Made by a program: the position numbers and the translations under genes. Source: Candidatus Omnitrophota bacterium (lineage in GTDB: Bacteria; Omnitrophota; Gorgyraeia; Zapsychrales; Aceulaceae). From it: 64,000 nucleotides of DNA. The stretch lies in assembly GCA_028693815.1 (NCBI GenBank), contig JAQUUP010000002.1, forward strand, positions 7,056 to 71,055, given 5' to 3'. Positions within the stretch are counted from its first letter, which is position 1; each line of letters begins with the position of its first letter. Below the pieces are notes generated by a model. That model ran no database searches. It was not told the origin of the DNA and worked only from the letters and a program-made list of their open reading frames with translations. This document shows, in pieces, positions 5,095 to 22,528 of this stretch.

Positions 5095-5097
5095 TTC

Positions 5098-5192
5098 TTA
5101 AGGAAACCCCGCGTCGCTTAAAGGCGTTCCTGGGGTAAATTCGCATAGCAACTTGCGAGCACTAACGTTCCGCAAGATTGCGTGCTCATTTA
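5098..5192 (+). repeat. Intergenic structured repeat element, copy A (5' of atpA)
   Basis: Shares the 5' module CCCCGCGTCGCTTAAA..GGGGTAAATTCGC, a hairpin CTTGCG-AGCACTAACGTTC-CGCAAG, and the 3' end GTGCTCATTTAGG with other copies. Confidence 0.5.
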
Positions 5193-5201
5193 GGAGAAAA
5201 T

Positions 5202-6947
5202 ATGTCAGATAATTTAAGAAAAGGACAAGTCATTGGTGTCAATGGCAACATGGTATCTGTTGAATTCTTGACGAATGTCATGCAAAACGAAGTGGCGTAT
5301 ATCGTGCAAGGTAGCGATCGATTAAAGTCGGAAGTTATCCGTATTCGCGGAAAGCGTGCTGAGCTTCAGGTTTTTGAGGATACCAATGATATCAAAATTG
5401 GTGATTGTGTTGAATTTTCTGGTGAGCTTTTAAGTGTTGAGTTAGGTCCAGGTCTTTTAGGGCAAGTGTTTGATGGGCTTCAAAATCCATTGCCTCGTTT
5501 AGCACAGGATCATGGATTTTTCTTAAAACGTGGTGTTTATTTAAGCGCTTTAGAAGATGATCAGCAATGGGAATTTACGCCAACTGTAAAAAAAGGAGAT
5601 AAGGTTCGATCTGGTTCAAAACTTGGATTTGTCCCAGAAAAGATATTTGAACACAGCATTATGGTTCCATTTCATCTTTCAGGTGAATTGGAAGTTGTTG
5701 AAATTGTTGCAAAAGGAAAATATAAAATAAAAGATGTTGTCGCAAAAGTAAAGAGTTTGGATGGAAAAACACACGATGTTTGTATGAAAACTATTTGGCC
5801 TGTCAAAATGCCTATTAATGCATATTCAAAAAAACTAAAACCTATAAAACCTCTTGTTTCGAAAATTCGTATTATTGACACGCTTGTCCCTGTTGCTGTG
5901 GGTGGAACATTTTGTACTCCGGGACCTTTCGGTGCTGGAAAAACTGTTTTGCAGCATTTGCTTAGTCGACACGCGGAGGTGGATGTTGTTGTCATTGCTG
6001 CTTGCGGTGAGCGTGCAGGTGAGGTAGTAGAAGTTTTGAAAACATTTCCAGAGCTTAAAGATCCTCGGACTCAAAAAACATTGATGGATAGAACGATTAT
6101 TATTTGCAACACAAGTTCTATGCCTGTTGCGGCTCGAGAGTCTAGTGTTTATACGGCTGTAACCATTGCAGAATATTATCGTCAAATGGGATTAAATGTT
6201 TTCTTGTTGGCAGATTCAACTTCCCGATGGGCGCAAGCTATGCGCGAGATGTCGGGCCGTTTAGAAGAAATTCCAGGAGAAGAAGCTTTTCCAGCGTATC
6301 TTGAGACACGTATTGCTTCTTTTTATGAGCGTGCGGGTATTGTTCAGCTAAGAGACGGAAAAACAGGTTCTGTCACTATCGGTGGTGCGGTTAGTCCGGC
6401 TGGTGGAAACTTTGAAGAGCCGGTAACGCAGGCGACTTTAAAAGTTGTTGGCGCCTTTCATGGACTTTCGCGAGATCGTGCTAATGCACGAAAATATCCG
6501 GCGATAGATCCTTTGCAAAGTTGGAGCAAATACGAAAGCTTTATTGAATTTGAAAAAGTAGAAAAAGGTATCCGCATTTTAAAAAGAAGTGATCAGATTG
6601 ATCAGATGATGAAGGTTGTTGGGGAAGAAGGCACAACGTTGGATGATTTTGTGGAGTATCTTAAAGGTGATTTTTTTGATTCTGTTTATTTGCAACAAAA
6701 TGCCTTTGATGAAGTGGACGAGGCAACGATTGCCGATAGACAAAAATATATTTTTGATATTATTGTTGAGATCATTGATAAAAAGTTTGATTTTAAAGGA
6801 AAAGAAGACGCTCGAAAGTTTTTCTTAGACTTGCGTCAGAAATTTATCAACTGGAACACAAAAAAATTTAATTCTAGCGAATTTAAGAGTCTTGAAAAAA
6901 ATGTTTTAGATCAAATACAAGTGACAAAGGTGGAGCAAAATGCATAA
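5202..6947 (+). CDS. atpA: V/A-type ATP synthase catalytic subunit A
   Basis: Walker [12 protein letters not shown] and overall A-subunit similarity. The start is re-assigned to the ATG at 5202 with an AGGAG Shine-Dalgarno; the track's TTG at 5178 lies inside the upstream repeat element. Confidence 0.9.
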
Positions 6948-8235
6948 AGTTTATAATGAAATTATTCAAATTGCTGGAGATGTTATTACGGTTGAAGCAA
7001 AGAATGTTGGTTATAACGAATTAGCTGAAGTTCAAACGCAAGGGAGCATTTCCTTAGCACAAGTTATTCGTCTTGACGGAGATCGTGTGTCTTTGCAGGT
7101 TTTATCAGGAAGCCGTGGAATTTCGACAAACGATAAGGTTCGATTTCTAAAGCACCCTATGCAAGTGTCTTTTACGCAAGATCTTTTGGGTAGAATTTTT
7201 ACCGGAAGTGGTGAGTCTAGAGACAATGGTCCTGCTTTAACAGAAAATATGATTGCTATTGGCGGGCCATCTGTTAATCCAGCTAAACGTATTATCCCGA
7301 AAAATATGATTCGAACCGGTATTCCGATGATCGATGTTTTTAATTCTTTGGTTGAATCTCAAAAACTTCCGATTTTTTCTGTGGCTGGCGAACCGTATAA
7401 TCCGTTGTTGGCCCGCATCGCGATGCAGGCCGAAGTTGACATGATTATTTTAGGCGGTATGGGATTAAAATATGATGATTATTTATTTTTTAAAGACACG
7501 CTAGAAAAACAAGGTGCATTATCTCGATCAATTTTATTTGTACACACTGCTTCAGATCCGACGGTCGAATGCTTGCTTGTGCCTGACATGTCTTTAGCGG
7601 TTGCTGAACAATTTGCTCTTGAAGGAAAGCGAGTTTTGGTATTGCTTACAGATATGACAAATTTTGCTGATGCTTTAAAAGAAATCGCTATTACCATGGA
7701 ACAGATTCCTTCAAATCGTGGATATCCGGGTGATCTTTATAGCCAGTTAGCTAAGCGTTATGAAAAAGCAGTTGATTTTGATGGAGCAGGATCAATCACG
7801 GTTTTGGCAGTTACTACGATGCCCGGTGATGATGTTACGCATCCGGTTCCGGACAACACAGGATATATTACTGAGGGACAATTTTATTTAAAAGGTGGAA
7901 GGATTGAACCTTTTGGATCTTTAAGTCGATTAAAGCAACAGGTTAATGGAGATACTCGTGACGACCATCGTACGATTATGGATCGTATGATTCAATTTTA
8001 TGCGGACTATAGAGAAACTTTAGAAAAGAAATCTATGGGTTTTCAGATGAGTGGTTGGGATAATAAGCTTTTAAAATATGGGGATCGATTTGAAAAAGAA
8101 TTAATGGCTTTGTCTGTTAACATTCCTTTAGAAAAGGCTTTGGATTTAGGATGGGAAATTTTATCAAGCACATTTGACAAATCCGAAACCGGCATCAAAG
8201 ATGCTTTGATTGAAAAATATTGGCCTAAAAAATAA
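6940..8235 (+). CDS. atpB: V/A-type ATP synthase subunit B (non-catalytic)
   Basis: B-subunit nucleotide-binding fold lacking a canonical Walker A ([14 protein letters not shown]). Overlaps atpA by 8 nt. Confidence 0.9.
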
Positions 8236-8237
8236 AT

Positions 8238-8322
8238 TAGGGAAAGCCCGCGTCGCTTAAAACCGCTTCTGCTGCTTCGTTTTGCAAGCAAAAGCGAAGC
8301 AAAGCGACAGGGGCTCATTTAA
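8238..8322 (+). repeat. Intergenic structured repeat element, copy B (5' of atpD)
   Basis: Same termini (CCCGCGTCGCTTAAA ... GGGGCTCATTTAA) but a different internal hairpin (GCTTCG-TTTTGCAAGCAAAA-GCGAAGC). Confidence 0.5.
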
Positions 8323-8325
8323 ATT

Positions 8326-8943
8326 ATGGCAAAGATTAAATTAACAAAAAGCGAACTTAAAAAACAGCGGGATAGTCTCGATCAGTTCTCGCATTATTTG
8401 CCGACGCTGCAGCTTAAGAAGCAGCAATTGCAAATTAAGGTTTTTGAGATTCGAAAATCTTTAGCAGAAAAGCAAGCAATGCTCGATTCTCTTAAAGTCA
8501 GTATTGATTCATGGATCGGTCTTTTGTCGGATCCAGGCGTTGATATTGAAGAATGGATTATTCCTCAAAACGTTTCTTTGGCGACCCACAACATTGCTGG
8601 CGCGGATATTCCTGTTTTTGAAAAGGTAGAGTTTAAAAACGTGGATTATGATCTTTATGTTATGCCTTTTTGGGTTGACGAGGGAATTGAGATTATAAAG
8701 AAGTTTTTTTCTTTTCTACTTGAAATAGAAATTATCAAGAAACAAATTGTAATTTTACAAAAAGAGCTGATGACGACAACGCAGCGTGTTAATTTGTTTG
8801 AAAAAGTAAAAATTCCAGAGTGCCTTGAAAATATCCGAAAAATAAGAATTTATTTAGGTGATCAACAGGCAAGTGCGGTGGGGGTGAGCAAGGTCGCAAA
8901 GAAAAAAATTGAGCAAGCAGTCCTTGCGGAGATGGGCGTATGA
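8326..8943 (+). CDS. atpD: V/A-type ATP synthase subunit D
   Basis: N-terminus MAKIKLTKSELKKQRDSLDQF plus a coiled-coil, typical of the central-stalk subunit D. Confidence 0.8.
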   Translation: MAKIKLTKSELKKQRDSLDQFSHYLPTLQLKKQQLQIKVFEIRKSLAEKQAMLDSLKVSIDSWIGLLSDPGVDIEEWIIPQNVSLATHNIAGADIPVFEKVEFKNVDYDLYVMPFWVDEGIEIIKKFFSFLLEIEIIKKQIVILQKELMTTTQRVNLFEKVKIPECLENIRKIRIYLGDQQASAVGVSKVAKKKIEQAVLAEMGV

Positions 8944-10706
8944 TTATTTCAATGAAGAAAATTTCTATTGTTGTTCAGAAAAAAGATGCTCAAGAAGCTT
9001 TGATGCGTTTAAGAGATATTGGTGTTGTGCATGTTCAGCATGAAAACATTCCCGAGAACGTAAGCATTTCTGAGACTAAAGAAGAAATTCAAAAGCTTCA
9101 AGACGCGATTAATTTTCTTGAAGGCCAAGGTGCCGCCCATGTGCCTCAGAGTTCAGGCCAAAAAGAAATGATCGATCGTATCATAGAGTGCATTCATCAG
9201 ATTCGTCAAATTGAAGACGATATGGCCAAGCGAAATTCTCTAATTAATCAATGGGAGCTGTGGGGAGATTTTAATCCGCAGGAATTAGAAAAATTTTCTC
9301 ATCATGGATTTTGCGCTGGGCTTTTTAAGATTCCAGTTAAAGAAGTAGAAAGTCTTCCCAAAGATGTTGTTTGCGAAAAAATCTTTGTTAAAGAAAAAAT
9401 CGCGCATTGTTTTGTTTTGTGTAAAGAAAAAAAATCTTTAGGGTTTCAGCAAGTTCATCTGCCTTCGCTAGGTTTATCTGAAATGAAGGATGTTCAAGCA
9501 AAAGACGCGCAGAAAATCCAAAACATAAAAAACGAGCTTAAGCGGTATTATCCATGTTTAAGTAGCTTTAAGCATTTTCTAGGGGAAAAACAATCAGATT
9601 TTCGTCTTAAGGAAGCGCTGGCAGGCATGGGACAAGATCAAGAGCTTTCATATCTTGTTGGGTTTTGTCCAGCCAATGTTTGCATTGAGCTTCAAAACGC
9701 TTCTCGAAAAGAAAAATGGGGCCTTGTCATCGAAGACCCATCAGATGACGATAAGATCCCAACACTTTTAAGAAATCCAAAATGGGTCAATATGATCAAG
9801 CCTGTTTTTTCGATGATGAATATTTTGCCAGGATATAAAGAATTTGATATTAGTGTATTTTTCTTAGTGTTTTTATCTGTCTTCTTTGGCATTTTAATCG
9901 GCGATGCTGGTTATGGTGCGATTTTCTTTTTAGCCACATTGATTGCGCATATTAAGTTAAACAAAAAAATGAAAGACAAAGCACCGCTATTCTTAATGTA
10001 CACATTAAGCGCGTGCGCGATTGTTTGGGGACTTTTGACAGGCACGATATTTGGTCAGGAGTGGATTAAGGGAATCTTTGATCCACTTTTGCCTTGGTTG
10101 ACAGATACAGAAAATATGCAGATGTTGTGTTTTTTAATTGGAGCGATTCATCTAAGTATCGCGCATATTTGGCGAGCGATTTTAAAAATGCCATCTTTTT
10201 CGGCTCTTTCAGAGGTGGGCTGGATTTCGATTTTGTGGGGAATGTTTTTTGTCGCTAAAATGCTTATCTTAAGCGATCCTTTGCCAGAGGTCGGTAAGCT
10301 TGCTTTGTTGGTTGGTTCCGGATTGGTTGTGTTTTTTAGTCAGCCAAAAAGAAATATTTTTAAAACAGTTGGCCTGGGGTTAGGCGAGCTTTTAATGAGC
10401 ATTGTTAATATGTTTACGGACATTGTTTCGTATATTCGACTTTTTGCTGTTGGTCTTGCAACCGTAGCTGTGGCTGATGCATTTAATCAAATGGCTTTAG
10501 GTATCGGGTTTAATAGTTTCTTTGCAGGACTTGCTACGGCGATGATTTTGGTTTTGGGGCATGTTTTAAATATTGCTTTAGGCGCTATGGCGATTTTGGT
10601 TCACGGAATACGTTTAAATGTTTTGGAATTTTCTAGCCATCTAAATATGGAATGGGCGGGCATTGCCTATAATCCGTTTCGAAAAGTAGAAGAGATTAAA
10701 AATTAA
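8940..10706 (+). CDS. atpI: V/A-type ATP synthase subunit I (membrane a-subunit)
   Basis: Soluble N-terminal half and polytopic C-terminal half with a conserved Arg-containing helix (SYIRLFAVGLA). ATGA overlap with atpD. Confidence 0.8.
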   Translation: MIISMKKISIVVQKKDAQEALMRLRDIGVVHVQHENIPENVSISETKEEIQKLQDAINFLEGQGAAHVPQSSGQKEMIDRIIECIHQIRQIEDDMAKRNSLINQWELWGDFNPQELEKFSHHGFCAGLFKIPVKEVESLPKDVVCEKIFVKEKIAHCFVLCKEKKSLGFQQVHLPSLGLSEMKDVQAKDAQKIQNIKNELKRYYPCLSSFKHFLGEKQSDFRLKEALAGMGQDQELSYLVGFCPANVCIELQNASRKEKWGLVIEDPSDDDKIPTLLRNPKWVNMIKPVFSMMNILPGYKEFDISVFFLVFLSVFFGILIGDAGYGAIFFLATLIAHIKLNKKMKDKAPLFLMYTLSACAIVWGLLTGTIFGQEWIKGIFDPLLPWLTDTENMQMLCFLIGAIHLSIAHIWRAILKMPSFSALSEVGWISILWGMFFVAKMLILSDPLPEVGKLALLVGSGLVVFFSQPKRNIFKTVGLGLGELLMSIVNMFTDIVSYIRLFAVGLATVAVADAFNQMALGIGFNSFFAGLATAMILVLGHVLNIALGAMAILVHGIRLNVLEFSSHLNMEWAGIAYNPFRKVEEIKN

Positions 10707-10724
10707 TTAAGAGGAGGGATTGTT

Positions 10725-11180
10725 ATGGAAACCGGAGTATTAATGCAATTTCAGGAATTAGGGGCTGTGGCTGCTTTGGCATTGGCGGCTATTGGCTCAG
10801 CCTTAGGAACAGGTGCTGCTGGCATGGCTGCGGTTGGTGCGTGGAAGAAATGTTTTGCGCAAAGCAAGGCTGCGCCTTTTATTTTAACAGTTTTTGTTGG
10901 TGCGCCTCTTTCGCAGACGATTTATGGAATGATTGTTATGAATTATATTGTGACAGCTGTCGCCAAGGGAAATTATTTGTGGAGCGCAGGTGTTTTAGGC
11001 GGGATTGCTATGGGCATGTCTGCTTGGATGCAGGGAAAAGCAGGAGCTGCTGCGGCAGATGCTATGGCCGAAACTGGCAAAGGATTTGGAAATTATTTAA
11101 TTGTTTTAGGCGTTATTGAAACTGTTGCTCTTTTTGTAATGGTTTTTATTATGATGGGTGCAGGAAAATTGGTCGGTTAA
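10725..11180 (+). CDS. atpK: V/A-type ATP synthase subunit K (proteolipid c subunit)
   Basis: Gly/Ala-rich four-helix proteolipid (GSALGTGAAGMAAVGA), last gene of the cluster. Confidence 0.8.
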   Translation: METGVLMQFQELGAVAALALAAIGSALGTGAAGMAAVGAWKKCFAQSKAAPFILTVFVGAPLSQTIYGMIVMNYIVTAVAKGNYLWSAGVLGGIAMGMSAWMQGKAGAAAADAMAETGKGFGNYLIVLGVIETVALFVMVFIMMGAGKLVG

Positions 11181-11217
11181 GACGTTTTTTGGTGAGCATA
11201 AGGGAAAAATAAGGCAG

Positions 11218-11246
11218 TTGACATAAATTTAATTTTATTGTAATAT
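11218..11246 (+). promoter_or_regulatory. Sigma70-type promoter of the tRNA operon
   Basis: TTGACA (11218-11223), a 17-nt spacer, then TAATAT (11241-11246), about 12 nt upstream of the tRNA-Val 5' end. Confidence 0.5.
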
Positions 11247-11258
11247 ACGTTTTCTATC

Positions 11259-11334
11259 GGGCGATTAGCTCAGTTGGTTAGAGCATCTGACTTACATTCA
11301 GAGGGTCGGGGGTTCGAGTCCTCCATTGCCCACC
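11259..11334 (+). tRNA. tRNA-Val (anticodon TAC)
   Basis: Hand-folded cloverleaf: acceptor GGGCGAT/ATTGCCC, D-stem GCTC/GAGC, anticodon stem TCTGA/TCAGA with loop CTTACAT, T-arm GGGGG-TTCGAGT-CCTCC, encoded CCA. Confidence 0.9.
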
Positions 11335-11360
11335 ATATTTTCTTTTTTTTAAAAATGCTT

Positions 11361-11438
11361 GGACCCGTGGTGTAGCTTGGTTAACATGTCAGATTGTCGA
11401 TCTGAAGATCGCGAGTTCAAATCTCGTCGGGTCCGCCA
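11361..11438 (+). tRNA. tRNA-Asp (anticodon GTC)
   Basis: Acceptor GGACCCG/CGGGTCC, anticodon stem TCAGA/TCTGA with loop TTGTCGA, T-loop TTCAAAT, encoded CCA. Confidence 0.9.
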
Positions 11439-11444
11439 TATAAA

Positions 11445-11484
11445 GAAAGCACTTGTCCCATTTGGGGCAAGTGCTTTCTTATTC
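11445..11484 (+). terminator. Rho-independent terminator after the tRNA pair
   Basis: Stem AGAAAGCACTTGTCCC / GGGCAAGTGCTTTCT with loop ATTT, followed by a T-rich tail. Confidence 0.6.
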
Positions 11485-11574
11485 GACGGTCTGACAGCTT
11501 TGAGGGTGCAAGCGAAGCTAACGAGTGACCGAGCGCAAGCGAGGGTGTCAAATCTTGAACCCTCCTTGATTTGA

Positions 11575-11700
11575 ACTTTTTAAAGGAGATCCCAATTTTT
11601 CGCTTTGCGAAAAATGGGATAAATTTGCACGGATGACTTACGAACGCTTACGCTCCGCAAATCATGTGCTCATTTAAGCGAAGGTATATAGTGCTTGAGC
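11575..11700 (+). repeat. Intergenic structured repeat element, copy E (in the long non-coding region after the tRNAs)
   Basis: Hairpin CCCAATTTTTCG/CGAAAAATGGG followed by ATAAATTTGC, then ...GTGCTCATTTAAGCG, a variant of the same family. Confidence 0.4.
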
Positions 11701-12057
11701 GAAGTGAAAGCATCAAATCTCAGACTGTCAGTGAGACAAGTTCGTAGTGATGACCCTTAGGTCATTAGCTTGAAGGTCGGGTAAAAATTTCCAGAAAATG
11801 TATCAACCTCACCATACATCTTTTAAATTTTTAGATTCATTTCGACAATTATAATAATCTTTCAAACTTTTCTTGTTGCCGTGTTAAAATGCTTGAACAA
11901 AGAAAAAGGAAGGAAAAAGAGAAAGAAGGGGTATCACCTTTTTCTTTGGAAAGATTGATCTAGGGTTGTTCTATTATAGGATATAAAGAGCTTATTATTA
12001 AGCTTATAAAACAATCACATCAGAAGTAGTCCGCTTAACAAGTTTCTGGATTTAATT

Positions 12058-12873: not shown

Positions 12874-12991
12874 ATTAATGTAACAAAAGAGCTGTGGTCT
12901 TTTGACAAACTCGGCAGACGGAAGAAAAGTGACAGCCACCAACCAGGGGGCAGTCTTTGTCAATATTGGCATTAAGGATAAGGGGTTTTGA

Positions 12992-13678: not shown

Positions 13679-13775
13679 AAAAAAGAAAAAGGGGACAGTT
13701 TTTTATCTTTTCGTTAAAATGGTTACAGAAAAGTTTTGGTTATTTTTTAATAATGTGTTTTAAAGGAGGTTAGCA

Positions 13776-14156: not shown

Positions 14157-14226
14157 TATTGTCTTTGCACCCATGATACCATGCCCAGCCGGGTGCAACA
14201 TTCCAGTTGTTTAAACTTTTAGAACT
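14157..14226 (-). pseudogene. Relic duplicate of the C-terminal coding end of the downstream GT-C-like membrane protein gene
   Basis: The minus-strand frame reads KSLNNWNVAPGWAWYHGCKD, matching ETFGNWGNEPGWAWYHAVKI at the C-terminus of the 14484..16112 gene. It is a 24/26-nt DNA direct repeat (14172-14197 vs 14519-14544). Confidence 0.45.
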
Positions 14227-14229
14227 TGT

Positions 14230-14487: not shown

Positions 14488-16112
14488 TTGTTCTCCTTTC
14501 GTTTCAAAATTTTTACCGCATGATACCATGCCCACCCGGGCTCATTTCCCCAATTTCCAAATGTTTCAACAGCGGTGAAGTTTTCATCAATATATTTTTT
14601 CAAAACAGGGCAATAGGTTTTTCCAAATGTTCCAAGGCCGGCCTCTTTTGAGTCAGAGCGGCTAGACAAAACAATATAGGCAGCATTGTTTTCTTTTAAA
14701 TCAGAAATAATGGCTCGTTCTTGTTCTTGTGGAATATTAATATAATCAAAAAAGATGAGTTCTCGAGTCGGGCTTTTTTTATTTGTTAGAAAATAATAAA
14801 GCGAATCATAAGGGAGTGCAAGAAAGGTTTCATCTTTGTTCACATTTTTCTTGAGATAGTCGACAGAAGAAGTAACCGTATTAATCCAAGAAGGTGGATT
14901 TTCAATATAAACTTTTGTTTTGTTGATTTGTAGCAAATGATTATTATTTTTATACAGAGCGACGATTTTATGTTGTTGCACAGCGCTTGTTAAGGCAACA
15001 ATAAGAAAGATTATATAGATTGAGAATCTAATAACTTTAGATAAATTTTTGATGGCATATTCAATGATGAGAAAAATAAAAAGCATTTGAAAAGGGTTGA
15101 CCCAGCGCATGCGATAAACGATAGCGCTTGCAAAGAATTCGTGAAGACCAAAAAATATAAATAAAATTAAAGAAATAAGAAACAAAAAGAATTCTTTTGT
15201 TTTGTTTTCTTGACTGTTTTTTAGCATTGCTTGAATTGAACGAAAGCCGCAAAGAAAAATAATTATGGCAAAAATACGGTTGGGCAAAGACCACGATGTT
15301 ATATTCCAGAGGACGACGCGCCATAGTTTTACGAGAGACATCCAAATGCTCGCGTGAGTTGGGTCGTAGGATGGAAGATAAGGAAAACATTGTTTGATAA
15401 AATATATTGGCAAGTTTCGTGTAAGTAGCCAATAAATCAAGAACGCCAAGGCTGGAATGCCGAGCAGCGAAAGGATGTAGATTTTCTTATTTTGGATCTT
15501 TTTTTCTTTAATGTAGTCAGTTAGAGCAAAAGTTATCAGGGTGGATAACAGAAAGAAAAATCCCATGTTGGCTTTAATCAAGAAAATTGTAGAAATTGAT
15601 AACAATGTGGCATAAATAAATTTCTTCTGACAAGATTGAATGTAGTGGGCGATAAAAAACATCGTGAGAATAAAGAAAGGAATGGCACCTGTGTGATTGT
15701 AGGTATAAAAAAATTCGGGTCGAAAAGCCAAAAACCAAACTGTAGCGGCCATAGCCATCATGGGCGAGGCAAAAAGAGAAATTGTTAGATAAAAAAGAAT
15801 GCCTGCAATAAGGATGAGAAAGATTTTGGCGATCAAAATGCTTTGAATGCTTATGCCAAGAATTTTATAAGCGCTGGCATAATAATATGGCATAGCTGGT
15901 CCATAGACCCACCAGTAGTCTTCATAAGGGGTTGATCCTTCAAGGGTTGAGCGAAAGGCATAAAGATCGCGACCATGATCTCCTTGCGCTAAGATAGGCT
16001 GAAAGTTGGCGTAAGGTGCTAGGATGAATATTCCTAGAATGCAAGTAAGGACTAGAAGAAGAATTTTCTGATTTTTAGATAAAAAAGTAGATAAAAGTTG
16101 TATTTTTTTCAT
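14484..16112 (-). CDS. Polytopic membrane protein with periplasmic C-terminal domain, GT-C (ArnT/PMT-like) glycosyltransferase candidate
   Basis: Roughly 11-13 TM helices, with an acidic/aromatic first loop (QGDHGRDLY...EDYWWVYGP) and a ~150-aa soluble C-terminus. Family assignment is tentative. Start taken at MKKIQLL. Confidence 0.45.
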   Translation of the reverse strand: MKKIQLLSTFLSKNQKILLLVLTCILGIFILAPYANFQPILAQGDHGRDLYAFRSTLEGSTPYEDYWWVYGPAMPYYYASAYKILGISIQSILIAKIFLILIAGILFYLTISLFASPMMAMAATVWFLAFRPEFFYTYNHTGAIPFFILTMFFIAHYIQSCQKKFIYATLLSISTIFLIKANMGFFFLLSTLITFALTDYIKEKKIQNKKIYILSLLGIPALAFLIYWLLTRNLPIYFIKQCFPYLPSYDPTHASIWMSLVKLWRVVLWNITSWSLPNRIFAIIIFLCGFRSIQAMLKNSQENKTKEFFLFLISLILFIFFGLHEFFASAIVYRMRWVNPFQMLFIFLIIEYAIKNLSKVIRFSIYIIFLIVALTSAVQQHKIVALYKNNNHLLQINKTKVYIENPPSWINTVTSSVDYLKKNVNKDETFLALPYDSLYYFLTNKKSPTRELIFFDYINIPQEQERAIISDLKENNAAYIVLSSRSDSKEAGLGTFGKTYCPVLKKYIDENFTAVETFGNWGNEPGWAWYHAVKILKRKENK

Positions 16113-16232
16113 AGTAAACAAAGGAGTTGTCGAAGCACTGTATTTAATGGTAACATTGGCACATCTGTCATTCAAGTGCTTTTCTAAAGAAAGCCCTTGT
16201 GGTAGAATGATTCGTCAAATTTAACTTTAACA

Positions 16233-16320
16233 GAAAGGCTCCGACACGCTTCGCGTGCGGAGTTAATTCGGGCATGTAACTTATGAGCACTAGCGTTCCA
16301 TAAGTTACGCCCTTATTAAA
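16233..16320 (+). repeat. Intergenic structured repeat element, copy C (5' of the tRNA-binding protein gene)
   Basis: Hairpin CTCCG-ACACGCTTCGCGTG-CGGAG plus TTAATTCGG, then hairpin CTTATG-AGCACTAGCGTTC-CATAAG, ending ...TTATTAAAGGAG. Confidence 0.5.
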
Positions 16321-16330
16321 GGAGTTTTTT

Positions 16331-16651
16331 ATGATTAATTTTAAAGATTTTCAGAATCTTGAGCTTATTGTCGCTCAAATTGTAGAAGTTAAAGAACATC
16401 CTAACGCGGATAAGCTTTATGTGCTTAAAATCAACACAGGCAAAGAAGAAAAACAGATTGTGGCTGGAATTAGAAATGCGTATTCTAAAGAGGCTTTGCT
16501 GGGAAGAAAAATTATTGTTGTTAATAACTTAGAGCCTGTTGTACTCAGAGGTGAGGAATCAAATGGAATGCTTTTAGCCGCTTCGGATGACTTTGGCCCA
16601 TCTGTTTTATCGCCGGATCGTGATGTTAAAATCGGGAGCAGGGTTAAATAA
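16331..16651 (+). CDS. Standalone tRNA-binding domain protein (Trbp111/CsaA/MetRS-C-terminal Myf domain)
   Basis: Sequence LELIVAQIVEVKEHPNADKLYVLKINTGKEEKQIVAGIRN...IIVVNNLEPVVLRGEESNGMLLAA matches the OB-fold tRNA-binding domain consensus closely. Confidence 0.85.
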   Translation: MINFKDFQNLELIVAQIVEVKEHPNADKLYVLKINTGKEEKQIVAGIRNAYSKEALLGRKIIVVNNLEPVVLRGEESNGMLLAASDDFGPSVLSPDRDVKIGSRVK

Positions 16652-16661
16652 AAGGGTGAGT

Positions 16662-17135
16662 ATGGTTAACTTAAAACAATTTGTTGATCAAGAAACTTGT
16701 TTGGCGTGTAGGGGCTGTTGCCGATTTTATGAAGAAAAAAGTTTGTGGCGACCTAAGCTAACAAAACAAGAGGCGGCCTATGTTAGCGAAGAGATTATCG
16801 ACGAGGATTATCGTGTTAAAAGTGTTGTATCGGGTAGTCAGTATCTTTGCAGCTTTCTTGATGAAAAAACATCTCTTTGCCGAAAATATGTAGAGCGTCC
16901 TTTTGAATGCGTGCTTTATCCCTTCGTTTTAGTTAAAGATAATGATAAGGTAATGGTCGCTGTGCATTTAGCCTGTCCGTTTGTTCAAGAAAAAAGAGCG
17001 TCAGGTGAGTTTTCGCAATATCGTGAAAATCTAAAGAATTTTTTTAGTAGTGTTGAAGATAAGTCTGATATTAGCGCGTTGGCACAAGCGTATCCAGACG
17101 CTAGCCAAGAACTAGACATTTTATTCTCGATATGA
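16662..17135 (+). CDS. YkgJ-family (UPF0153) cysteine-cluster protein, putative Fe-S or Zn binding
   Basis: CLACRGCCRF plus the downstream Cys residues (LCSF, LCRKY, ECVLYPF, LACPF) typical of the YkgJ family. Start at MVNLKQ after a GGGTGAG Shine-Dalgarno. Confidence 0.6.
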   Translation: MVNLKQFVDQETCLACRGCCRFYEEKSLWRPKLTKQEAAYVSEEIIDEDYRVKSVVSGSQYLCSFLDEKTSLCRKYVERPFECVLYPFVLVKDNDKVMVAVHLACPFVQEKRASGEFSQYRENLKNFFSSVEDKSDISALAQAYPDASQELDILFSI

Positions 17136-18028
17136 GCCAAGACATATTTGCGCAAAGAAAAATTGTTGATCAGTTTTTGCAAAAGACTGGCTTTGAGCTT
17201 TCATCGTATTCATTTATTAATATTTTTGCATGGCAAGATTTCTTTGATTTTGAGTTTCAAGTGATAGATGAAAGACTGCTTGTTTTTGCTGGTAATGACT
17301 TGGGAAGCTTTCTTTATTTACCTCCTTTAGGGAAAGGCATTTCAAGAGAATGCGTTGACACCTGTTTCAGAATTTTAAATGAGAAAAATAATGGTAAAGG
17401 CGTTGGGCGTATTGAGAATGTGGAAGAAAAGGACTTGGGCCTTTTTGGTGAAAAAGATTTTGTTAGATTTGAGAAATCTAGAGAAACGGTTTATTCTCGA
17501 TGTGATATTGCAAACCTCCAAGGTAATCGATTTAAATCAAAGAGATCGTCTTATAATCATTTTGTTAAAAATTATAAGTTTGAATTTTGCCCGTATCGCG
17601 ACAGCATGAAAAAGAATTGTTTTTTGCTCTATGATCAATGGACAAAAAAGCGAAAAAAGAGAAATAGTGACGAGATCTATCAACAGATGATCGATGAAAG
17701 CGGTGTTGCTTTAAGACGTTGTTTAAATAATTTTCAAAATCTCGGTTTGATTGGATGTGTTGTTTTTGTTGAAGGTAGAATCGTTGGCTACAGTTTTGGG
17801 TTTGCTCTTAAGCAGGATGTTTTTTGCATTCTTTTTGAGATTGCTGATCTAGAAATGAAGGGACTTTCGACTTATCTTTTTAGTGAATTTTGTAAAATGA
17901 AGGCTGTTGAGTCGTTTAATTTTATAAATGTTATGGATGACTTTTCTCTAGACAATGTTCGGTCAACAAAATTATCGTTTAAACCGGCTAAGCAAATTAA
18001 AACGTATACTATTTCACAAAAGGATTAA
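17132..18028 (+). CDS. DUF2156-like protein (homolog of MprF C-terminal aminoacyl-tRNA-dependent transferase domain), tentative
   Basis: A ~300-aa soluble protein with SYSFINIFAWQDFFDF...FLYLPPLG, resembling the LPG_synthase_C/DUF2156 family. Assignment from memory of the family, not verified. ATGA overlap with the upstream gene. Confidence 0.4.
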   Translation: MSQDIFAQRKIVDQFLQKTGFELSSYSFINIFAWQDFFDFEFQVIDERLLVFAGNDLGSFLYLPPLGKGISRECVDTCFRILNEKNNGKGVGRIENVEEKDLGLFGEKDFVRFEKSRETVYSRCDIANLQGNRFKSKRSSYNHFVKNYKFEFCPYRDSMKKNCFLLYDQWTKKRKKRNSDEIYQQMIDESGVALRRCLNNFQNLGLIGCVVFVEGRIVGYSFGFALKQDVFCILFEIADLEMKGLSTYLFSEFCKMKAVESFNFINVMDDFSLDNVRSTKLSFKPAKQIKTYTISQKD

Positions 18029-18031
18029 TTG

Positions 18032-18586
18032 ATGCAAGATATTTTAGATAAAGAGTTTGTTATCTTTGACGTAGAAACAACAGGATTGTCGCCGGTAGGG
18101 GGAGACCGTATTGTTGAGATTGCAGCGCTGAAAGTAAGAAATTTAGAGCCTGTGGAGCGATTTCATTCTTTGATTAATCCGGATCGTTCTATTTCTCCCG
18201 GCGCGTTTGAAGTGAATCGGATTTCAGAGTCGATGCTTATCGATGCTCCAAGAAGCCATGAGATTTTACCAGCATTTCTAGAGTTTCTAGGAGATGCCAT
18301 TATCGTTGGGCACAACATCAATTTTGATTTAGGTTTTTTACGAAACGAGCTTAATTTAGCAGGTCTTGTGCCTGCAGAATCGTTTAATGCAGTAGACACT
18401 ATCCGGATTTCGAAGCGTGTGATGCCGCACTTAAAGCGATATCCTTTATGGTTTGTAGCAAGCAGCCTCGGTGTTGAGCGTAAACAATCTCATCGGGCTA
18501 TGGCGGATGTTGAAATGACATTTGAGGTTTTTTATAAACTTGTTCATCTTGCAAAAGAACAAAATATTTTATCCCAGATTTTGTGA
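18032..18586 (+). CDS. DEDDh-family 3'-5' exonuclease (DnaQ/RNase T-like)
   Basis: Exo I FVIFDVETTG, Exo II HNINFDLGFL, Exo III HRAMADVEMT. Starts immediately after the upstream stop. Confidence 0.8.
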   Translation: MQDILDKEFVIFDVETTGLSPVGGDRIVEIAALKVRNLEPVERFHSLINPDRSISPGAFEVNRISESMLIDAPRSHEILPAFLEFLGDAIIVGHNINFDLGFLRNELNLAGLVPAESFNAVDTIRISKRVMPHLKRYPLWFVASSLGVERKQSHRAMADVEMTFEVFYKLVHLAKEQNILSQIL

Positions 18587-18690
18587 AAGAAATAATGGTA
18601 ACCGGGATTACCTAACGCTTTTTTGATAAAATACTAGGGAAGGCTAATTTTGAACAATACGCAAAATTTGGGATTAAAGGAGATTTCTTT

Positions 18691-20103
18691 TTGAAAAAAA
18701 CGTTTTCGAAAACATATGATTTCTCAGGAAAAAGTGAGGATATTTTCTTGGCTTTTTCAGATGAACCGATGTTGTTTTTTTTAGATAGCAGTTTGAGCCA
18801 GCCGAGTCGAGGACGATTTTCTTTTATTGGATTTAAGCCTTTTGATATTGTTTCAGCAAGCGGAAAGAATTCTTTAGAAATGCTTCAAGATAAATTTGAT
18901 CAACATCAGATTTGTCTCGACAATCAATTAACACCTTTTTCTTCAGGGGCTGTTGGATTTTTAGGTTATGAACTTGGGGGTCAGTGGGAAGATATCCTTT
19001 TGCGTGAAAAGCCAGGGATATCTTTGCCAGATTGTTTTTTTGGATTTTATAATGGCGTTATTGCCATTGATCATGTTTTAAATAAGCTACATATTATTAC
19101 AACGGGAATTCCAGAGAAAAATGATTTGTTGAGAGAAAAGAAAGCCTTGGAAGATTTGCGCTATATTGAGAATCGGCTTAACAAAGAATATAAAGAAGAA
19201 AAAAAACAAGTTGTTGATTTTGATTTTTCAGAGGAATATTCGCAGTCTTCTGAGTTTTCAAGTAATTTTACGAAAGAAAAATATTTAGAAGCTGTTGATC
19301 GTGCGCTTGAATATATTCGTCAGGGCGATATTTATCAAGTCAATCTATCTCAAAGGTTTTTGCTTAAAAAGGATTTCTCAAATACTAAAGATTTGGCAAG
19401 GTTATATGTTTTTTTAAGAGCGATTTCTCCGTCGAGCTTTGGCTCTTATTTTGATGCAGGAGATTTTCAGATTATTAGCAGTTCCCCAGAAGAATTTTTG
19501 TGTAAGCGAGGCCAGCACATTGAAACAACGCCAATGAAAGGAACGCGGCCGCGATCACAAAATATTATTGATGATGAGATTTTTAAGCGAGATCTTTTAG
19601 AGAGCCCTAAGGAAAAGGCAGAGCTTTTGATGGTGACTGATTTAGAGCGTAACGATTTAGGAAAAGTGTGCTTGCCGGGTTCGGTTCGTGTTCGATCGAT
19701 GCGAACACTCGAAGAATATAGAACTGTTTTTCAGACAACATCAACCGTCGAGGGTGTGTTGGCAGAGAATAAAAATGTATTTGATATTTTAAGGGCATGT
19801 TTTCCATCTGGATCTGTAACGGGATGCCCAAAGATTCGTGCCATGCAAATTATTAATGAGCTTGAGCCTAATAAACGAGAAGCGTATACGGGATCTTTTG
19901 GGTATATTGGATTTGATGAGTCGATGGATTTTAATATTCTTATTCGAACTCTTGTTGCGAAAAAAGACAAATTGTCTTTTCATGTGGGTGGTGGTATTGT
20001 TGCTGATTCTATCGCGGAGAACGAATATGACGAAACGCTTTTAAAGGCACTTGCTTTGCGAAAAAGTATTTCTAGCATTTTCTTGGAGAAATTAGGAGTT
20101 TAA
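18691..20103 (+). CDS. pabB: Aminodeoxychorismate synthase component I (chorismate-binding enzyme)
   Basis: GDIYQVNLSQRF, MKGTRPR, LLMVTDLERNDLGKV and SGSVTGCPKIRAMQII are chorismate-utilising enzyme motifs. Probable TTG start after AAAGGAG. Confidence 0.75.
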   Translation: MKKTFSKTYDFSGKSEDIFLAFSDEPMLFFLDSSLSQPSRGRFSFIGFKPFDIVSASGKNSLEMLQDKFDQHQICLDNQLTPFSSGAVGFLGYELGGQWEDILLREKPGISLPDCFFGFYNGVIAIDHVLNKLHIITTGIPEKNDLLREKKALEDLRYIENRLNKEYKEEKKQVVDFDFSEEYSQSSEFSSNFTKEKYLEAVDRALEYIRQGDIYQVNLSQRFLLKKDFSNTKDLARLYVFLRAISPSSFGSYFDAGDFQIISSSPEEFLCKRGQHIETTPMKGTRPRSQNIIDDEIFKRDLLESPKEKAELLMVTDLERNDLGKVCLPGSVRVRSMRTLEEYRTVFQTTSTVEGVLAENKNVFDILRACFPSGSVTGCPKIRAMQIINELEPNKREAYTGSFGYIGFDESMDFNILIRTLVAKKDKLSFHVGGGIVADSIAENEYDETLLKALALRKSISSIFLEKLGV

Positions 20104-20106
20104 TTG

Positions 20107-20949
20107 ATGGAGAAAAAAGTTATTTTTTTAGATGGGTTTATGATTCCGGTAACGCATTCATGGTCTAAGATGTTGTCTCCAGGGATTTTGTCTGGTGCTG
20201 GCGTTTTTGAAACGATGCGTTCTTATCAAGGAGAGGTGTTTGCTTTTGAAGAACATTTAAAAAGGCTTTACGATGGGCTCAAGACATTAAAAATGATCGC
20301 ACCTTGCACAAAAAAGGAGATGATCAAATATCTTAAAGCATCTCTTGAGGCAAACAAATTAAAGAATGCGCGCATTCGTCTCATGGTTTGGAAGGCAAAG
20401 GAAAAGACAAGAATTTCAATAGCTGTTTTTCCCTATCATCCTTTTTCAAAAGATAAATATAATCAAGGGCTTAAGGCTATTTTTTCAGATATTCGAAGAG
20501 ATGAAGAATCAGTTACTTCAAGGATTAAAACAGTTAACTATTTACCGCTTTTAATGGCACAAAGAAAAGCAAAAGCACGCGGCAATGATGAAGCCATTCT
20601 TTTGAATCGCAAAGGATTTGTTGTTGAAGGTAGTAAGAGCAATATCTTTTTTGTGAAAGACCAGAAACTTTATACGCCGGCGCTTAAAAGTGGCTGTCTC
20701 AATGGGATTACCCGTCAGATTATTATAAAGATTGCGCACAAGATGGATATGGACTGCAAGGAGGTTTTAGTTCTTCCAGATGATTTGATTGAGGCGAAGG
20801 AGGCTTTTTTGACTAATTCTTTGATGGAAATTATGCCTTTGACATTTGTGCAAGGGAAAATGATTGGCTCTGGAAAAGCGGGACCGGTTACCAATAAAAT
20901 TCTTCGTGCTTATCGAAAAGAAATCCGTAGCCGCTTGCATCAGATTTAA
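20107..20949 (+). CDS. pabC: Aminodeoxychorismate lyase / class IV aminotransferase
   Basis: Class IV PLP fold (ETMRSYQGEVFAFEEHLKRL, NIFFVKDQKLYTP), adjacent to pabB. Confidence 0.65.
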   Translation: MEKKVIFLDGFMIPVTHSWSKMLSPGILSGAGVFETMRSYQGEVFAFEEHLKRLYDGLKTLKMIAPCTKKEMIKYLKASLEANKLKNARIRLMVWKAKEKTRISIAVFPYHPFSKDKYNQGLKAIFSDIRRDEESVTSRIKTVNYLPLLMAQRKAKARGNDEAILLNRKGFVVEGSKSNIFFVKDQKLYTPALKSGCLNGITRQIIIKIAHKMDMDCKEVLVLPDDLIEAKEAFLTNSLMEIMPLTFVQGKMIGSGKAGPVTNKILRAYRKEIRSRLHQI

Positions 20950-21011
20950 AAGCTAGATTTTTTGTTTGCGTTGTTTTTACGACAGTATATAATATATTTA
21001 TATATTTTCTT

Positions 21012-22340
21012 ATGTATATTAAAAAAAATATGAAAAAATATCTATTTATACTTTTCTTTATATTCTACATTTCTTCTTTGTCTTTCGGCCAAACTATCTC
21101 TGACGGCGATATTGATGAGGTTATTTCTTCTGAAGAATCGATGAAGGATATTTATCAGACATTAAAAAAGCAGGCAAGAGCTCTTTTAGAGAAAAATAGA
21201 ATAATTAGCAGTGAAAATGATTTATACGAAGAGAAAAAGTCCGCATTAGTTGAAGAGCTTAGGGTTTTATCGGACAAAGAGAGCAGGCTTCAAGCAGAGC
21301 CTTTGAGAAGAAAGAAGAAGATAGAAAAGCTCAAAGAGCGAGCAAAGGATTTGGCCGCAGAGATAAAAGATACTGAAAATCAGATTGTTTCAATGAACTC
21401 GAATAGTTTGAGTGACCAAAAAAAGATTTTTGATGCGGAGAAAAAGAATTCTGATCTTATGAAAACATTGAGCAATATAAGCCAGCAGAAAGATCAGATG
21501 TTAGCAGCGCTTCATTCGCAGCCTCGCTTTGATGCTCGGGAGTTTGGTCAGCAGCTTGATCAGCTTAAAAGAGACTTGCTGAAAAGCCAAAATGAGCTCA
21601 AGCAAGAGCAAAAGGAGTTTCAGGAAAAACAAGAAGCTTTATCTACGCTCAAAGCTATGATTAGAGATTCACTTAATCAAAATTTATCAGACGAAAGTTT
21701 TAAAATATCTTCATTTGATGAAAATCCAGATTTTAAGGAAATTGTTGATCTAAAGAAGGATTTTGATCAGACATCCCAAGATATTACGAGTCTTTTTAAA
21801 AAGGCTGAAAAGGAAGGGTTGTTTCTTGATCGGGAAGCAAAAGAGACCAGAAATACAATATCTTTTAGTTATTCGTTGACAGATTTTCGTTATCAAAAAC
21901 AAAAACTTTTGGCGTCTATTAATGATCTTGAAAGCGAGATTGAAGACTTAAAACAGCGTCCTGAAAGAGAACGTTTTGAAAGAGACCAAAAGATTATAAT
22001 TCTTCAAAAGGATATAGCAGGACTTAAAGAGCAAATTTTAAAGAAGCAAAATGAACAAGAAGAGATTATTTGCGAACAAGAAGACAAGCTGTTGACTCGT
22101 GTAGAAGACTTGAAAGTTATCAATCTTTCTTTAAGCAGTCAAGTATTTGATTTAAATAGGCAAATACAGAAGACGGAAAAACAGAGAGCGACTTTATCTG
22201 GATTGTTGAGCACAACAACTGAGGCGTCGCCTCCCTTGAAGCCTAGCGAAAATGATGCATGCAAGGATGTCGAGTGTGACCGGCCGAATAATAGTGTTTT
22301 GCCAAAATCGCTTTTTAAGACACCAGAGATTTTAAAATAG
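21012..22340 (+). CDS. Secreted or membrane-anchored coiled-coil protein
   Basis: Signal-peptide-like N-terminus followed by ~400 aa of heptad-rich E/K/Q/L sequence. Confidence 0.4.
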   Translation: MYIKKNMKKYLFILFFIFYISSLSFGQTISDGDIDEVISSEESMKDIYQTLKKQARALLEKNRIISSENDLYEEKKSALVEELRVLSDKESRLQAEPLRRKKKIEKLKERAKDLAAEIKDTENQIVSMNSNSLSDQKKIFDAEKKNSDLMKTLSNISQQKDQMLAALHSQPRFDAREFGQQLDQLKRDLLKSQNELKQEQKEFQEKQEALSTLKAMIRDSLNQNLSDESFKISSFDENPDFKEIVDLKKDFDQTSQDITSLFKKAEKEGLFLDREAKETRNTISFSYSLTDFRYQKQKLLASINDLESEIEDLKQRPERERFERDQKIIILQKDIAGLKEQILKKQNEQEEIICEQEDKLLTRVEDLKVINLSLSSQVFDLNRQIQKTEKQRATLSGLLSTTTEASPPLKPSENDACKDVECDRPNNSVLPKSLFKTPEILK

Positions 22341-22365
22341 ATGATGTTCGGAAATTTAAAAGTTA

Positions 22366-22528
22366 ATACTTCGACACGTTTCACGTGCGGAGTAAATTCG
22401 CAGTTCTAAGTTATAGGTTTTTTTAGATCTTAGAGTTTAATTGCTCATTAGCCCCGCTTAGCGGGGTAAATTCGCCCAGCAAACTTACGCTCACTAACGC
22501 TCGCGTAAGCTTGGGGCTCATTTAAGGA
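22366..22528 (+). repeat. Two tandem copies (D1, D2) of the intergenic structured repeat element, 5' of lrp
   Basis: D1: CTTCG-ACACGTTTCACGTG-CGGAG plus TAAATTCGC ... TTGCTCATTA. D2: GCCCCGC-TTAG-CGGGG plus TAAATTCGC, hairpin CTTACG-CTCACTAACGCTCG-CGTAAG, ending GGGGCTCATTTAAGGAGG. Confidence 0.5.

Follow-up and report, generated by a model that had tools for sequence, protein, structure and literature searches.

The stretch of DNA analysed here (hereafter the window) consists of 64,000 nucleotides from a Candidatus Omnitrophota bacterium (contig JAQUUP010000002.1, positions 7,056 to 71,055), in which a preliminary description had recognised six copies, A to F, of a structured intergenic repeat placed just 5′ of start codons. 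We find that these repeats are probably non-autonomous mobile palindromic DNA elements, whose nearest counterparts are the REPINs (hairpin-forming doublets of repetitive extragenic palindromic sequences, REPs), the bacterial interspersed mosaic elements (BIMEs) and the MITEs (miniature inverted-repeat transposable elements). Copies have been gained and lost between related genomes, and fresh insertions carry short target duplications. The family behaves like the REP and MITE repeats that lie between genes, not like conserved regulatory RNA leaders. Each element is non-coding, some 75 to 130 bp in size, and comprises two modules, a variable hairpin on the 5′ side (H1), then an extended hairpin of about 57 nt (H2).

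Presence and absence of copies in related genomes

A covariance model of the conserved part of the element, R1, was built from 46 aligned copies, and the whole window was scanned with it, filters off. Copies F, C, A and D scored 59 to 65 bits and copy E 26 bits; beyond these, only a weak candidate on the minus strand (30735-30792) was found when both strands were scanned. Copy B was missed because it lacks the core hairpin, though it keeps the family ends. All six copies of the preliminary description were confirmed, each on the plus strand and between plus-strand open reading frames (ORFs), and its view that they form a true repeat family with inserted copies was borne out by the model matches and by the empty sites found in relatives.

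Orthologous regions of relatives were fetched via homologues of AtpB and Lrp. Among these genomes, L121 is Ca. Aceula lacicola-like (AtpB of the window is 95% identical to that of Ca. Aceula lacicola), L122 is Ca. A. meridiana, and L123, L125 and L126 are further relatives. Copy A (5104-5192, with H1 at 5106-5136 and the H2 core at 5132-5192; 62.8 bits) starts with AAACCCC and fills the spacer between a DUF2764 gene (stop at 5094) and the V-ATPase subunit A gene (ATG at 5202), as assigned with Pfam; in L121, L122 and L123 this spacer is 13 to 17 nt long and empty. The variant copy B (8243-8319) has the 5′ end AAAGCCC, one long H1-type hairpin in place of the H2 core, and the 3′ end GGGGCTCATT. 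It lies between the genes for V-ATPase B (stop at 8233-8235) and V-ATPase D (ATG at 8326), a spacer of 3 to 5 nt, also empty, in L121 to L123. Copy D (16234-16319, 5′ end AAAGG, H1 at 16238-16263, core at 16259-16319; 59.1 bits) is located between a promoter-like TGnTAGAAT site and the Shine-Dalgarno sequence of a tRNA-binding-domain gene (ATG at 16331). Its site is empty in L123 and in L125, where an 81-nt spacer has the same promoter-like sequence, GGTAGAAT, upstream. The tandem pair E-F begins with the degenerate copy E (22369-22450, H1 at 22369-22392, core at 22389-22450, stem eroded; 25.9 bits) and continues with copy F (22451-22524, H1 at 22451-22467, core at 22463-22524; 64.9 bits), after which come directly AGGAGG and, at 22535, the ATG of a gene for an Lrp/AsnC regulator (Pfam). 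The spacer 5′ of the Lrp gene is element-free in L125 and L126, and not alignable with that of the window.

The minus-strand candidate at 30735-30792 (16.4 bits, a weak match with E = 0.18) is a probable seventh copy, degenerate and without H1. It sits in the 67-nt spacer between an Era-like GTPase gene (stop at 30739-30741) and a YjeF_N gene (ATG at 30809), antisense to both, and its terminal TTA overlaps the stop codon of the Era-like gene. The site is empty in L125, with an 11-nt overlap between the two genes; in the window both gene ends are duplicated, and the insert has the junction sequence on either side. The reverse situation was observed as well: a copy at L125:1097-1157 (75 bits) occupies a junction that is empty in the window, and one at L122:2909-2971 a junction that is empty in L121 and L123.

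Copy C (11589-11676, H1 at 11589-11620, core at 11616-11676; 64.4 bits for the core) is the only one common to the window, L121 (14593-14654) and L123 (14532-14595). It is found 3′ of the tRNA-Val and tRNA-Asp genes and their terminator, with no adjoining start codon, and its two stem mismatches suggest that it is decaying. Identity between the orthologous tRNA-Asp-linked copies is 57 to 66% (60 to 66% for copy C against L121 and L123), while atpB of the window is 74 to 83% identical to that of the relatives, and 42 to 59% at third codon positions. Copy C drifts at about the third-codon-position rate, and constraint in place is weak. As the relatives are only moderately close, the turnover of copies takes place over species-level time. 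Another Omnitrophota genome contains, at the same atpB-atpD junction as copy B, a 142-nt insert (L124:11297-11438) without H2 core, made of nested hairpins (GGGTGTTT...AAACACCC around TCGAGAAAAT...ATTTTTCTCGA). Hairpins may insert preferentially at this junction, or the insert may be related to the H1-only copy B.

Two copies have clean target duplications. On either side of the copy at L125:1097 stands the same 10-nt sequence, TTAAGTAAGG, as an exact direct repeat; since it includes the last codon and the stop of the upstream gene, it derives from the target and does not belong to the element. Copy B lies between the 10-nt repeats TAAATTAGGG (8233-8242) and TAAATTATGG (8320-8329), with one mismatch, which destroys the duplicated ATG. 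From these two duplications, the unit in the Aceula lineage runs from AAA(G)CCCC to GCTCAT(T). Imperfect repeats of 10 to 15 nt, one of them about 15 nt and another about 12 nt long, border other young-looking copies (A, L052:4399, L128 and the 30735 copy). A metagenome scan for young Aceula-type copies yielded 9 loci, too few for a statistical test of target duplications. A search for solo arms in the collected loci gave one truncated duplicate (L008:5697) and chance matches, and no solo ends flanking a gene.

At the tRNA-Asp locus, a second tRNA 3′ end directly follows the core, exact over 12 nt in L121 and over 54 nt, terminator included, in L123. This looks like an att-type (attachment site) duplication from an old integration. 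The locus carries, 3′ of tRNA-Asp, an insert of about 200 nt (window 11436-11800; L123:14340-14660; L121:14400-14720), in which a GC-rich stretch common to the window and L123 (GCAAGCGAAGCTAACGAGTGACCGAGCG) and a degenerate copy of the tRNA T-arm (TCAAATCTC) precede copy C. After copy C, the window has a very degenerate element-like unit at 11719-11790 (TCTCAGACTGTCAGTGAGAC-AAGTTCG-TAGTGATGACCCTTAGGTCATTAGC-TTGAAGG), not matched by the model, and then GGTCGGGT, which resembles the tRNA-Asp 3′ end. The ~100 nt located 5′ of copy C were considered as an additional domain of the element and rejected, being seen solely at this locus (window and L123). L121 also contains an IS3-family insertion sequence (15919-17063, with rve and HTH_Tnp_1 domains), 1.3 kb 3′ of its tRNA-Asp-linked copy and at the end of the contig; no link was seen between it and the hairpin elements.

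Structure of the element and covariation of its stems

The layout of H2 is UAAAU - UC - GCNN - bulge - 10-bp stem - apical loop - NNGC - UC - AUUUA. Two conserved 9-mers, UAAAUUCGC and GCUCAUUUA, pair together around a near-invariant 2x2 internal loop of pyrimidines (UC/UC). The bulge, of 1 or 2 nt, is occasionally replaced by an extra small hairpin, the 10-bp stem is of the form ACUUAYG/CRUAAGU, and the apical loop is variable (12 to 30 nt), often with a mini-stem of its own. The preliminary description was right in reporting a second hairpin, but since TAAAU pairs with AUUUA, this hairpin is in fact a long helix that spans both 9-mers. The sequence TAAATTCGC, given there as invariant, reads TAAATTTGC in copy C and TTAATTCGG in copy D, and is absent from copy B.

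H1 is present 5′ of H2 in nearly all copies; those without H1, or with a variable 5′ part, are L058, L098, L080:6695 and the 30735 copy. Its sequence and its length (17 to about 60 nt) are almost free, and both simple and branched forms exist. Conservation is confined to the base, A(U/C)CCC...GGG(G/A)U, the final U being the first U of UAAAU. Branched forms have an additional 4-bp helix that covaries by eye (GCCU/AGGC, GCGU/ACGC, GCUU/AAGC, CCAA/UUGG, GUUU/AAAC). The two modules reassort: the H2 subfamily of copy A, with the same bulged A, recurs at other loci of other genomes with unrelated H1s, and two copies on one contig share an H1 and differ in H2. The H1 of copy E is related to that of copy D. 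A modular organisation had been proposed earlier from copy B, which keeps the family termini around a different internal hairpin, and it is supported here. Tandem arrays are made of head-to-tail H1+H2 units, and all six inverted pairs are head-to-head, sharing one palindromic H1.

The six window copies fold as drawn under both DNA and RNA parameters, with z-scores of -1.7 to -7.1 (-3.5 for DNA and -4.5 for RNA in the case of copy B, -6.3 and -7.1 for copy D). Two further features were looked for by eye and discarded. A pseudoknot between the H2 loop GAGCAC and a 3′ GTGCTC, possible in copy A, is unsupported by copies C, D and F; a small ORF on the complementary strand (TAA-ATG-AGC...) is not conserved, as L029- and GCGC-type copies stop after 3 codons.

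In the first alignment (46 copies), 98.3% of the stem cells were paired, with double changes at 10 of the 19 pairs. In the ~90 copies found by the model, these values were 97.7% and 15 of the 19, the double changes being compensatory. None of 500 shuffled controls did as well for pairing and covariation, and sliding the partner by 1 to 3 columns left merely 17 to 45% of pairing. The pattern used to collect copies required exact termini (TAAATTYGC-N30-50-GCTCATTTA), so covariation of the outer stem was judged solely from copies found later by the model; outside the exact pattern, this stem reads TAAGT/ACTTA, CAAGT/ACTTG, TTAAT/ATTAA or TCAAT/ATTGA. Copy D keeps all 19 modelled pairs through three compensations, among which TTAAT/ATTAA instead of TAAAT/ATTTA in the outer stem and GG/CC instead of GC/GC (GGGC/GCCC). 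The compensations noticed earlier were all found again, in H2 (CTTGCG/CGCAAG in copy A, CTTACG/CGTAAG in F, CTTATG/CATAAG in D) and in H1 (CACGC/GCGTG in D, CACGT/ACGTG in E). Short motifs taken by themselves were not above chance in the window when mismatches were allowed; significance resides in the whole architecture.

An RNA helix under selection normally puts up with many G·U but few A·C pairs; in a DNA palindrome, the two are equivalent. Stem cells of sense copies comprised 983 Watson-Crick, 15 G·U, 8 A·C and 22 other pairs, and those of antisense copies 405, 3, 1 and 4, respectively. G·U is not clearly commoner than A·C, and we lean towards a DNA palindrome as a better fit than RNA, on counts that are small. 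Antisense copies keep the strand-specific features (bulge in the 5′ arm, loop sequence, H1 on the TAAAT side), which are therefore properties of the element rather than of the local transcript. The loop is asymmetric: in the orientation of the element, CTTCG occurs 46 times and CGAAG 11 times, against 412 and 438 in the background. Read on the complementary strand, the internal loop and these apical loops become tandem G·A pairs and GCGAAGC-type loops, which are stable single-stranded DNA motifs.

Covariation had been taken as a mark of selection on RNA or single-stranded DNA structure, as opposed to plain sequence repetition. That structure, and not only sequence, is under selection stands; the further view that covariation separates the family from REP-type repeats and designates a leader or a small RNA is not supported, and the two properties once posed as alternatives hold at the same time. 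Compensatory stem changes are common in the mobile hairpins of REPINs (PMC3116915). More generally, strong covariation in a multi-copy element is by itself no proof of a functional RNA.

Distribution across genomes and position relative to genes

A collection scan, with one genome per species, returned at least 120 loci matching the termini pattern. Among the matches listed, about 55 loci, from species-level Omnitrophota genomes, were confirmed as family members by the model, and the rest (60-odd, from many phyla) are chance matches. R1 matches amount to at least 90 copies in 61 loci plus the window. Among the matches listed, the model-positive loci are labelled Omnitrophota/Omnitrophica or "uncultured Planctomycetia/Planctomycetales", except for one "uncultured bacterium" and one Paceibacterota (36.5 bits); the "Planctomycetia" labels are the names given at deposition to binchicken third-party metagenome-assembled genomes (MAGs), and were taken as deposited. 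The family is restricted, or nearly so, to the candidate phylum Omnitrophota. The Paceibacterota copy (L046:5994-6057), with an H1 of its own and a terminator-like hairpin after it, is the sole family-like copy outside genomes labelled as belonging to the PVC group (Planctomycetes, Verrucomicrobia, Chlamydiae), and could reflect horizontal transfer, a binning error or chance. Termini matched by chance in 85 viral contigs, of which 80 were scanned with the model without any family member being found, and the plasmid and phage collections gave none either. In related loci fetched via proteins, and not via the element, copies numbered about 7 to 8 in 113 kb, or about 1 per 15 kb, which by extrapolation would give on the order of a hundred copies per genome.

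The comparison with Rfam that had been proposed brought no family match: at the gathering threshold, only two tRNAs were found in the window, and at permissive E-values the best hits, on A and on E/F, had 8 to 12 bits and E-values of 7 to 9. No description of interspersed repeats of this kind in Omnitrophota came up when PubMed Central and bioRxiv were searched by text, and the terms searched for in the paper naming Ca. Aceula brought up no relevant mention of repeats, palindromes or transposases. The family is apparently undescribed so far. An unrelated repeat matches the termini in an Oribacterium MAG, as three identical copies (L054, L056 and L120; CCCC-TAAATTCGC...GCTCATTTA-GGGG) without model match, and would seem to form a repeat family of its own, in a Firmicute. 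Within the family, one MAG (L067:104-6893 and L003) has at least 4 near-identical units, which have H1 and the 5′ flank, AATAATGATTCCGAAA, in common. Three of these, on contig L067, lie among a triplicated pair of paralogues, ORFs of about 450 and 113 amino acids (the latter starting with MKLIIAMIQPHK), which by eye look like ammonium transporter and P-II genes.

All copies are intergenic, and their position could be evaluated for 85 out of 90, the remaining 5 being too near a locus end. The 3′ end falls between -3 and +20 nt from a same-strand start (ORFs of at least 60 codons) for 50 of the 85 (59%). These copies are followed by AGGAGG and an ATG, or by an ATG touching or overlapping the terminal ATTTA without Shine-Dalgarno sequence. 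Another 15 adjoin a convergent gene at its stop codon, 8 are followed by the next unit of a tandem array, and 12 are located elsewhere, three of them beside tRNA genes, as is window copy C. For 10 copies, the terminal TTA of the element, read as its exact reverse complement, is the TAA with which the convergent gene stops, and in three H1-less copies the TAA of the 5′ TAAAT is the stop codon of the upstream gene. The start-codon bias seen in the preliminary description is thus real but partial, and no rule: in the window itself, copy C is followed by ~380 nt of non-coding sequence, and copy E by copy F. Relative to both neighbouring genes, 44 to 46 copies are in sense orientation and 17, about a quarter, are antisense, a ratio of about 3:1.

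In the 8-kb loci the sign of GC skew follows the gene strand, and transcription and replication strand are inseparable since the two are confounded. In the window, GC skew is strongly positive in each 2-kb bin from 1 to 64000 (+0.08 to +0.30) and long ORFs are nearly all on the plus strand from 1 to 26 kb; the window as a whole seems to belong to a single replication arm. It also contains a 215-nt direct repeat (61266-61480 and 61659-61873, 71% identity, spacing 393 nt, with a third partial match at 58875), which is probably a repeated coding domain or paralogous genes.

Antisense copies are found at the groEL stop codon or 2 nt after it in two loci (L015:2226-2345 and L061:2214-2400), whose GroEL proteins are 78% identical. 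In L015, H1 and then nine T on the gene strand would double as a groEL terminator; in L061 a separate canonical terminator is present further on. A third antisense copy, in L012, starts at the stop codon of a tuf-like gene. The T-run after H1 in L015 suggested that H1 could be a hairpin pre-existing in the target, a proposal that was not retained as a general rule, no hairpin being present in the empty sites of A, B, D and L125:1097.

Origin of the repeats and significance

If the repeats are mobile palindromic DNA, an enzyme supplied in trans would recognise their folded ends, the internal loop and the 9-mers. Only copies able to fold would be propagated, and covariation would come from selection among replicators, not gene by gene. 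Integration would proceed through a staggered cut, of 10 bp in both clean cases, within an A+T-rich stretch after stop codons or before ribosome-binding sites, positions that are nearly the only non-coding targets in these compact genomes. Purifying selection would then spare insertions leaving the Shine-Dalgarno sequence or the start codon intact at the foot of the helix, producing the apparent start-codon adjacency and the sense bias. Position by starts and stops would in this way follow from tiny spacers, A+T-rich targets and the loss of insertions that damage ribosome-binding sites. Inserted elements would be co-transcribed, their folding would hold stop and start codons close together, and a secondary role as mRNA hairpins in stability or processing is possible; effects of co-transcribed hairpins on the mRNA are plausible.

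Several observations weigh against mobile palindromic DNA. The evidence for target duplication consists of two clean cases with two or three imperfect ones, of varying length (10, 10, ~15, and 12 or 54 nt at the tRNA-Asp locus), and over 69 copies the mean score for flanking direct repeats was 4.33 against 4.22 +/- 0.11 after permutation, which is not significant; we read this as most copies being old. The relatives compared are fairly diverged (atpB at most 83% identical), and precise loss may account for some empty sites. The unit has no terminal inverted repeats, and is for that reason an unnatural fit for a classical MITE of the DDE-transposase type. A phmmer search with E. coli RayT of 4898 ORFs, from ~1.1 Mb of loci (8 to 20 kb per genome, hence of low power), gave a best E-value of 0.44. 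Lastly, the ~3:1 sense bias, the near-invariant UC/UC loop and the CTTCG excess are strand-specific, and could point to a function at the level of RNA or of single-stranded DNA.

Compared with known repeats, the family differs from the REPINs in one defining feature, as it has target duplications, and from the MITEs in another, as it has no terminal inverted repeats. Like the REPINs of Pseudomonas and Enterobacteria, it consists of short, multi-copy, extragenic hairpins (6 to 7 copies in the window), with arms that make up an inverted doublet on either side of a spacer (19 paired positions in H2), compensatory stem changes (as noted above from PMC3116915), tandem arrays and inverted pairs, long persistence in one lineage, and a position tight against gene ends. 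It departs from them by the second, variable hairpin H1, always on one side, by the 10-nt target duplications of its two clean young copies, by the sense bias just 5′ of start codons, and by motifs (TAAATTCGC and GCTCATTTA, with the UC/UC loop) unrelated to known REPs; no REP-associated tyrosine transposase (RAYT) turned up in the low-power search of the collected loci. Bacterial MITEs (Correia in Neisseria, RUP and BOX in pneumococcus, MITEAba12) are likewise small, non-coding and non-autonomous, present or absent between related genomes, bordered by target duplications (clean for two of the copies described here), intergenic near promoters or ribosome-binding sites, co-transcribed and foldable, and BOX elements are modular too. 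In the Omnitrophota element, however, the termini (AAACCCC..., ...GCTCATTTA) are not inverted repeats, only the internal H2 arms being so, stem complementarity is conserved and not arm sequence, and conservation is phylum-wide rather than genus-wide, with no parent insertion sequence known. The BIMEs of E. coli share the mosaic of palindromic units and modules, in tandem and between operon genes, but their modules and sequences are other ones, and they alternate REP orientation whereas the arrays described here are head-to-tail. The intercistronic RNase III sites of phage T7 type offer a functional analogy only: they are ~60-nt hairpins with an internal loop, 5′ of the next ribosome-binding site, whereas the copies studied here can also be antisense, are polymorphic, and have DNA-like Watson-Crick stems.

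We regard as unlikely that the family is a true REPIN system, the H2 arms being an inverted REP doublet moved as single-stranded DNA by a vertically inherited, single-copy transposase of the HUH-Y1 type (a RAYT) that would recognise the hairpin and a conserved flanking motif. The abundance of compensatory changes in extragenic multi-copy hairpins, the almost purely Watson-Crick stems, the tandem arrays and inverted doublets, and a phylum-wide persistence such as vertically inherited replicators have would all fit, and single-strand DNA transposition would be expected to leave a strand bias. Transposition of the IS200/IS605 Y1 type is not known to make target duplications, and the clean 10-nt duplications of two young copies are at odds with it, as are the 17 oppositely oriented copies and, at low power, the lack of a RAYT-like ORF in the loci; the orientation argument is itself weakened by the confounding of GC skew and gene strand. 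That the repeats are a cis-acting RNA module selected locus by locus (a 5′ untranslated or intercistronic leader, an RNase III-type hairpin, or a device for translation initiation or coupling) is distinctly improbable. The 50 start-adjoining copies, whose 3′ AUUUA runs into AGGAGG or the AUG itself, speak for such a module, together with the strong RNA folds (z-scores of -2.7 to -7.1), the sense bias, the pyrimidine-rich UUCG-like loops favoured on the sense strand, the L088 copy 2 nt upstream of a tRNA 5′ end, and the location of copy D within a 5′ untranslated region, downstream of a conserved promoter-like site. Against it stand the insertion polymorphism, with no conservation at orthologous genes of related genomes, the mutually unrelated downstream genes, the 17 antisense copies that keep their strand-specific features and the 15 at convergent stops, the want of a clear excess of G·U over A·C (15 against 8 of ~1030 sense cells), the drift of copy C and the want of an Rfam match.

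A retrotransposed element resembling short interspersed nuclear elements, whose transcript, ending in H2, would be reverse-transcribed at nicked A+T-rich targets, seems very improbable to us. It predicts duplications of variable length, microhomology at the 3′ junction and 5′-truncated copies, and the duplications do vary (10, 10, ~15, 12 and 54 nt), the 3′ junction always overlaps target-like sequence (CATT|TAGGAG, CATT|TAAATT, and CTTATT common to copy D and its empty site), and the 3′ module H2 is conserved whereas the 5′ module is variable or missing. The H1-less copies nevertheless all have TAAAT as their precise start instead of being truncated at random; the element has no linked reverse transcriptase, its stems are without the G·U enrichment expected of a structurally selected RNA intermediate, and the 54-nt repeat at tRNA-Asp is more like att-type site-specific integration. 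Hardly any credence can be given to convergent gene-end signals, either bidirectional intrinsic terminators or insulators. A/U-rich arms do flank the helix on both strands, and antisense copies begin at the groEL and tuf-like stops, in L015 with the run of nine T; but canonical T-run terminators exist elsewhere in the window (after tRNA-Asp, for instance) and the elements are without T-run, most copies are 0 to 15 nt upstream of starts inside operons such as that of the V-ATPase, and neither phylum-wide 9-mers nor insertion polymorphism is expected from convergence. Intrinsic termination was also rejected directly, as none of the 11 terminator-like sites in 4500-23500 is at an element, and H2 is followed by CAUUUA and a Shine-Dalgarno sequence or AUG, with no U run. 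A promoter with TAAATT as -10 and a -35 inside H1 fits copies D and E only, and promoter-like sites show no excess in the region (52, against 49.6 in shuffled sequence). Integron attC sites (RYYYAAC...GTTRRRY, with promoterless cassettes) were rejected too: the termini here are TAAATTC...TCATTTA, and the flanking genes are core genes (V-ATPase operon, groEL, ribosomal protein genes).

Mobile palindromic DNA remains the probable explanation, and a bolder version of it can be formulated, which we hold to be rather unlikely: a long-lived, phylum-wide replicator with a mechanism new among small bacterial repeats (hairpin ends, no terminal inverted repeats, duplications of at least 10 nt), perhaps co-opted as a "translation-neutral" spacer. 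If true, folding of the spacer would bring stop and start together again, allowing the invasion, with expression left unharmed, of junctions where genes overlap and are coupled in translation, such as atpB/atpD, Era/YjeF_N or that between a DHOase (dihydroorotase) gene and the next gene.

Omnitrophota are uncultured, mostly ultra-small bacteria with compact genomes. In practical terms, the repeats can serve as a marker of the phylum, and they are a source of assembly breaks and of mis-annotated intergenic regions. They also constitute natural insertions with which to study how structured DNA or RNA is tolerated between packed or overlapping genes. With the same 9-mers and the same fold across ~55 species-level genomes, the family represents a rare case of long-lived mobile DNA in one lineage, to be set beside REPIN-RAYT, and its interest lies in this phylum-wide persistence, in its two-module design and in the mechanism that mobilises it.

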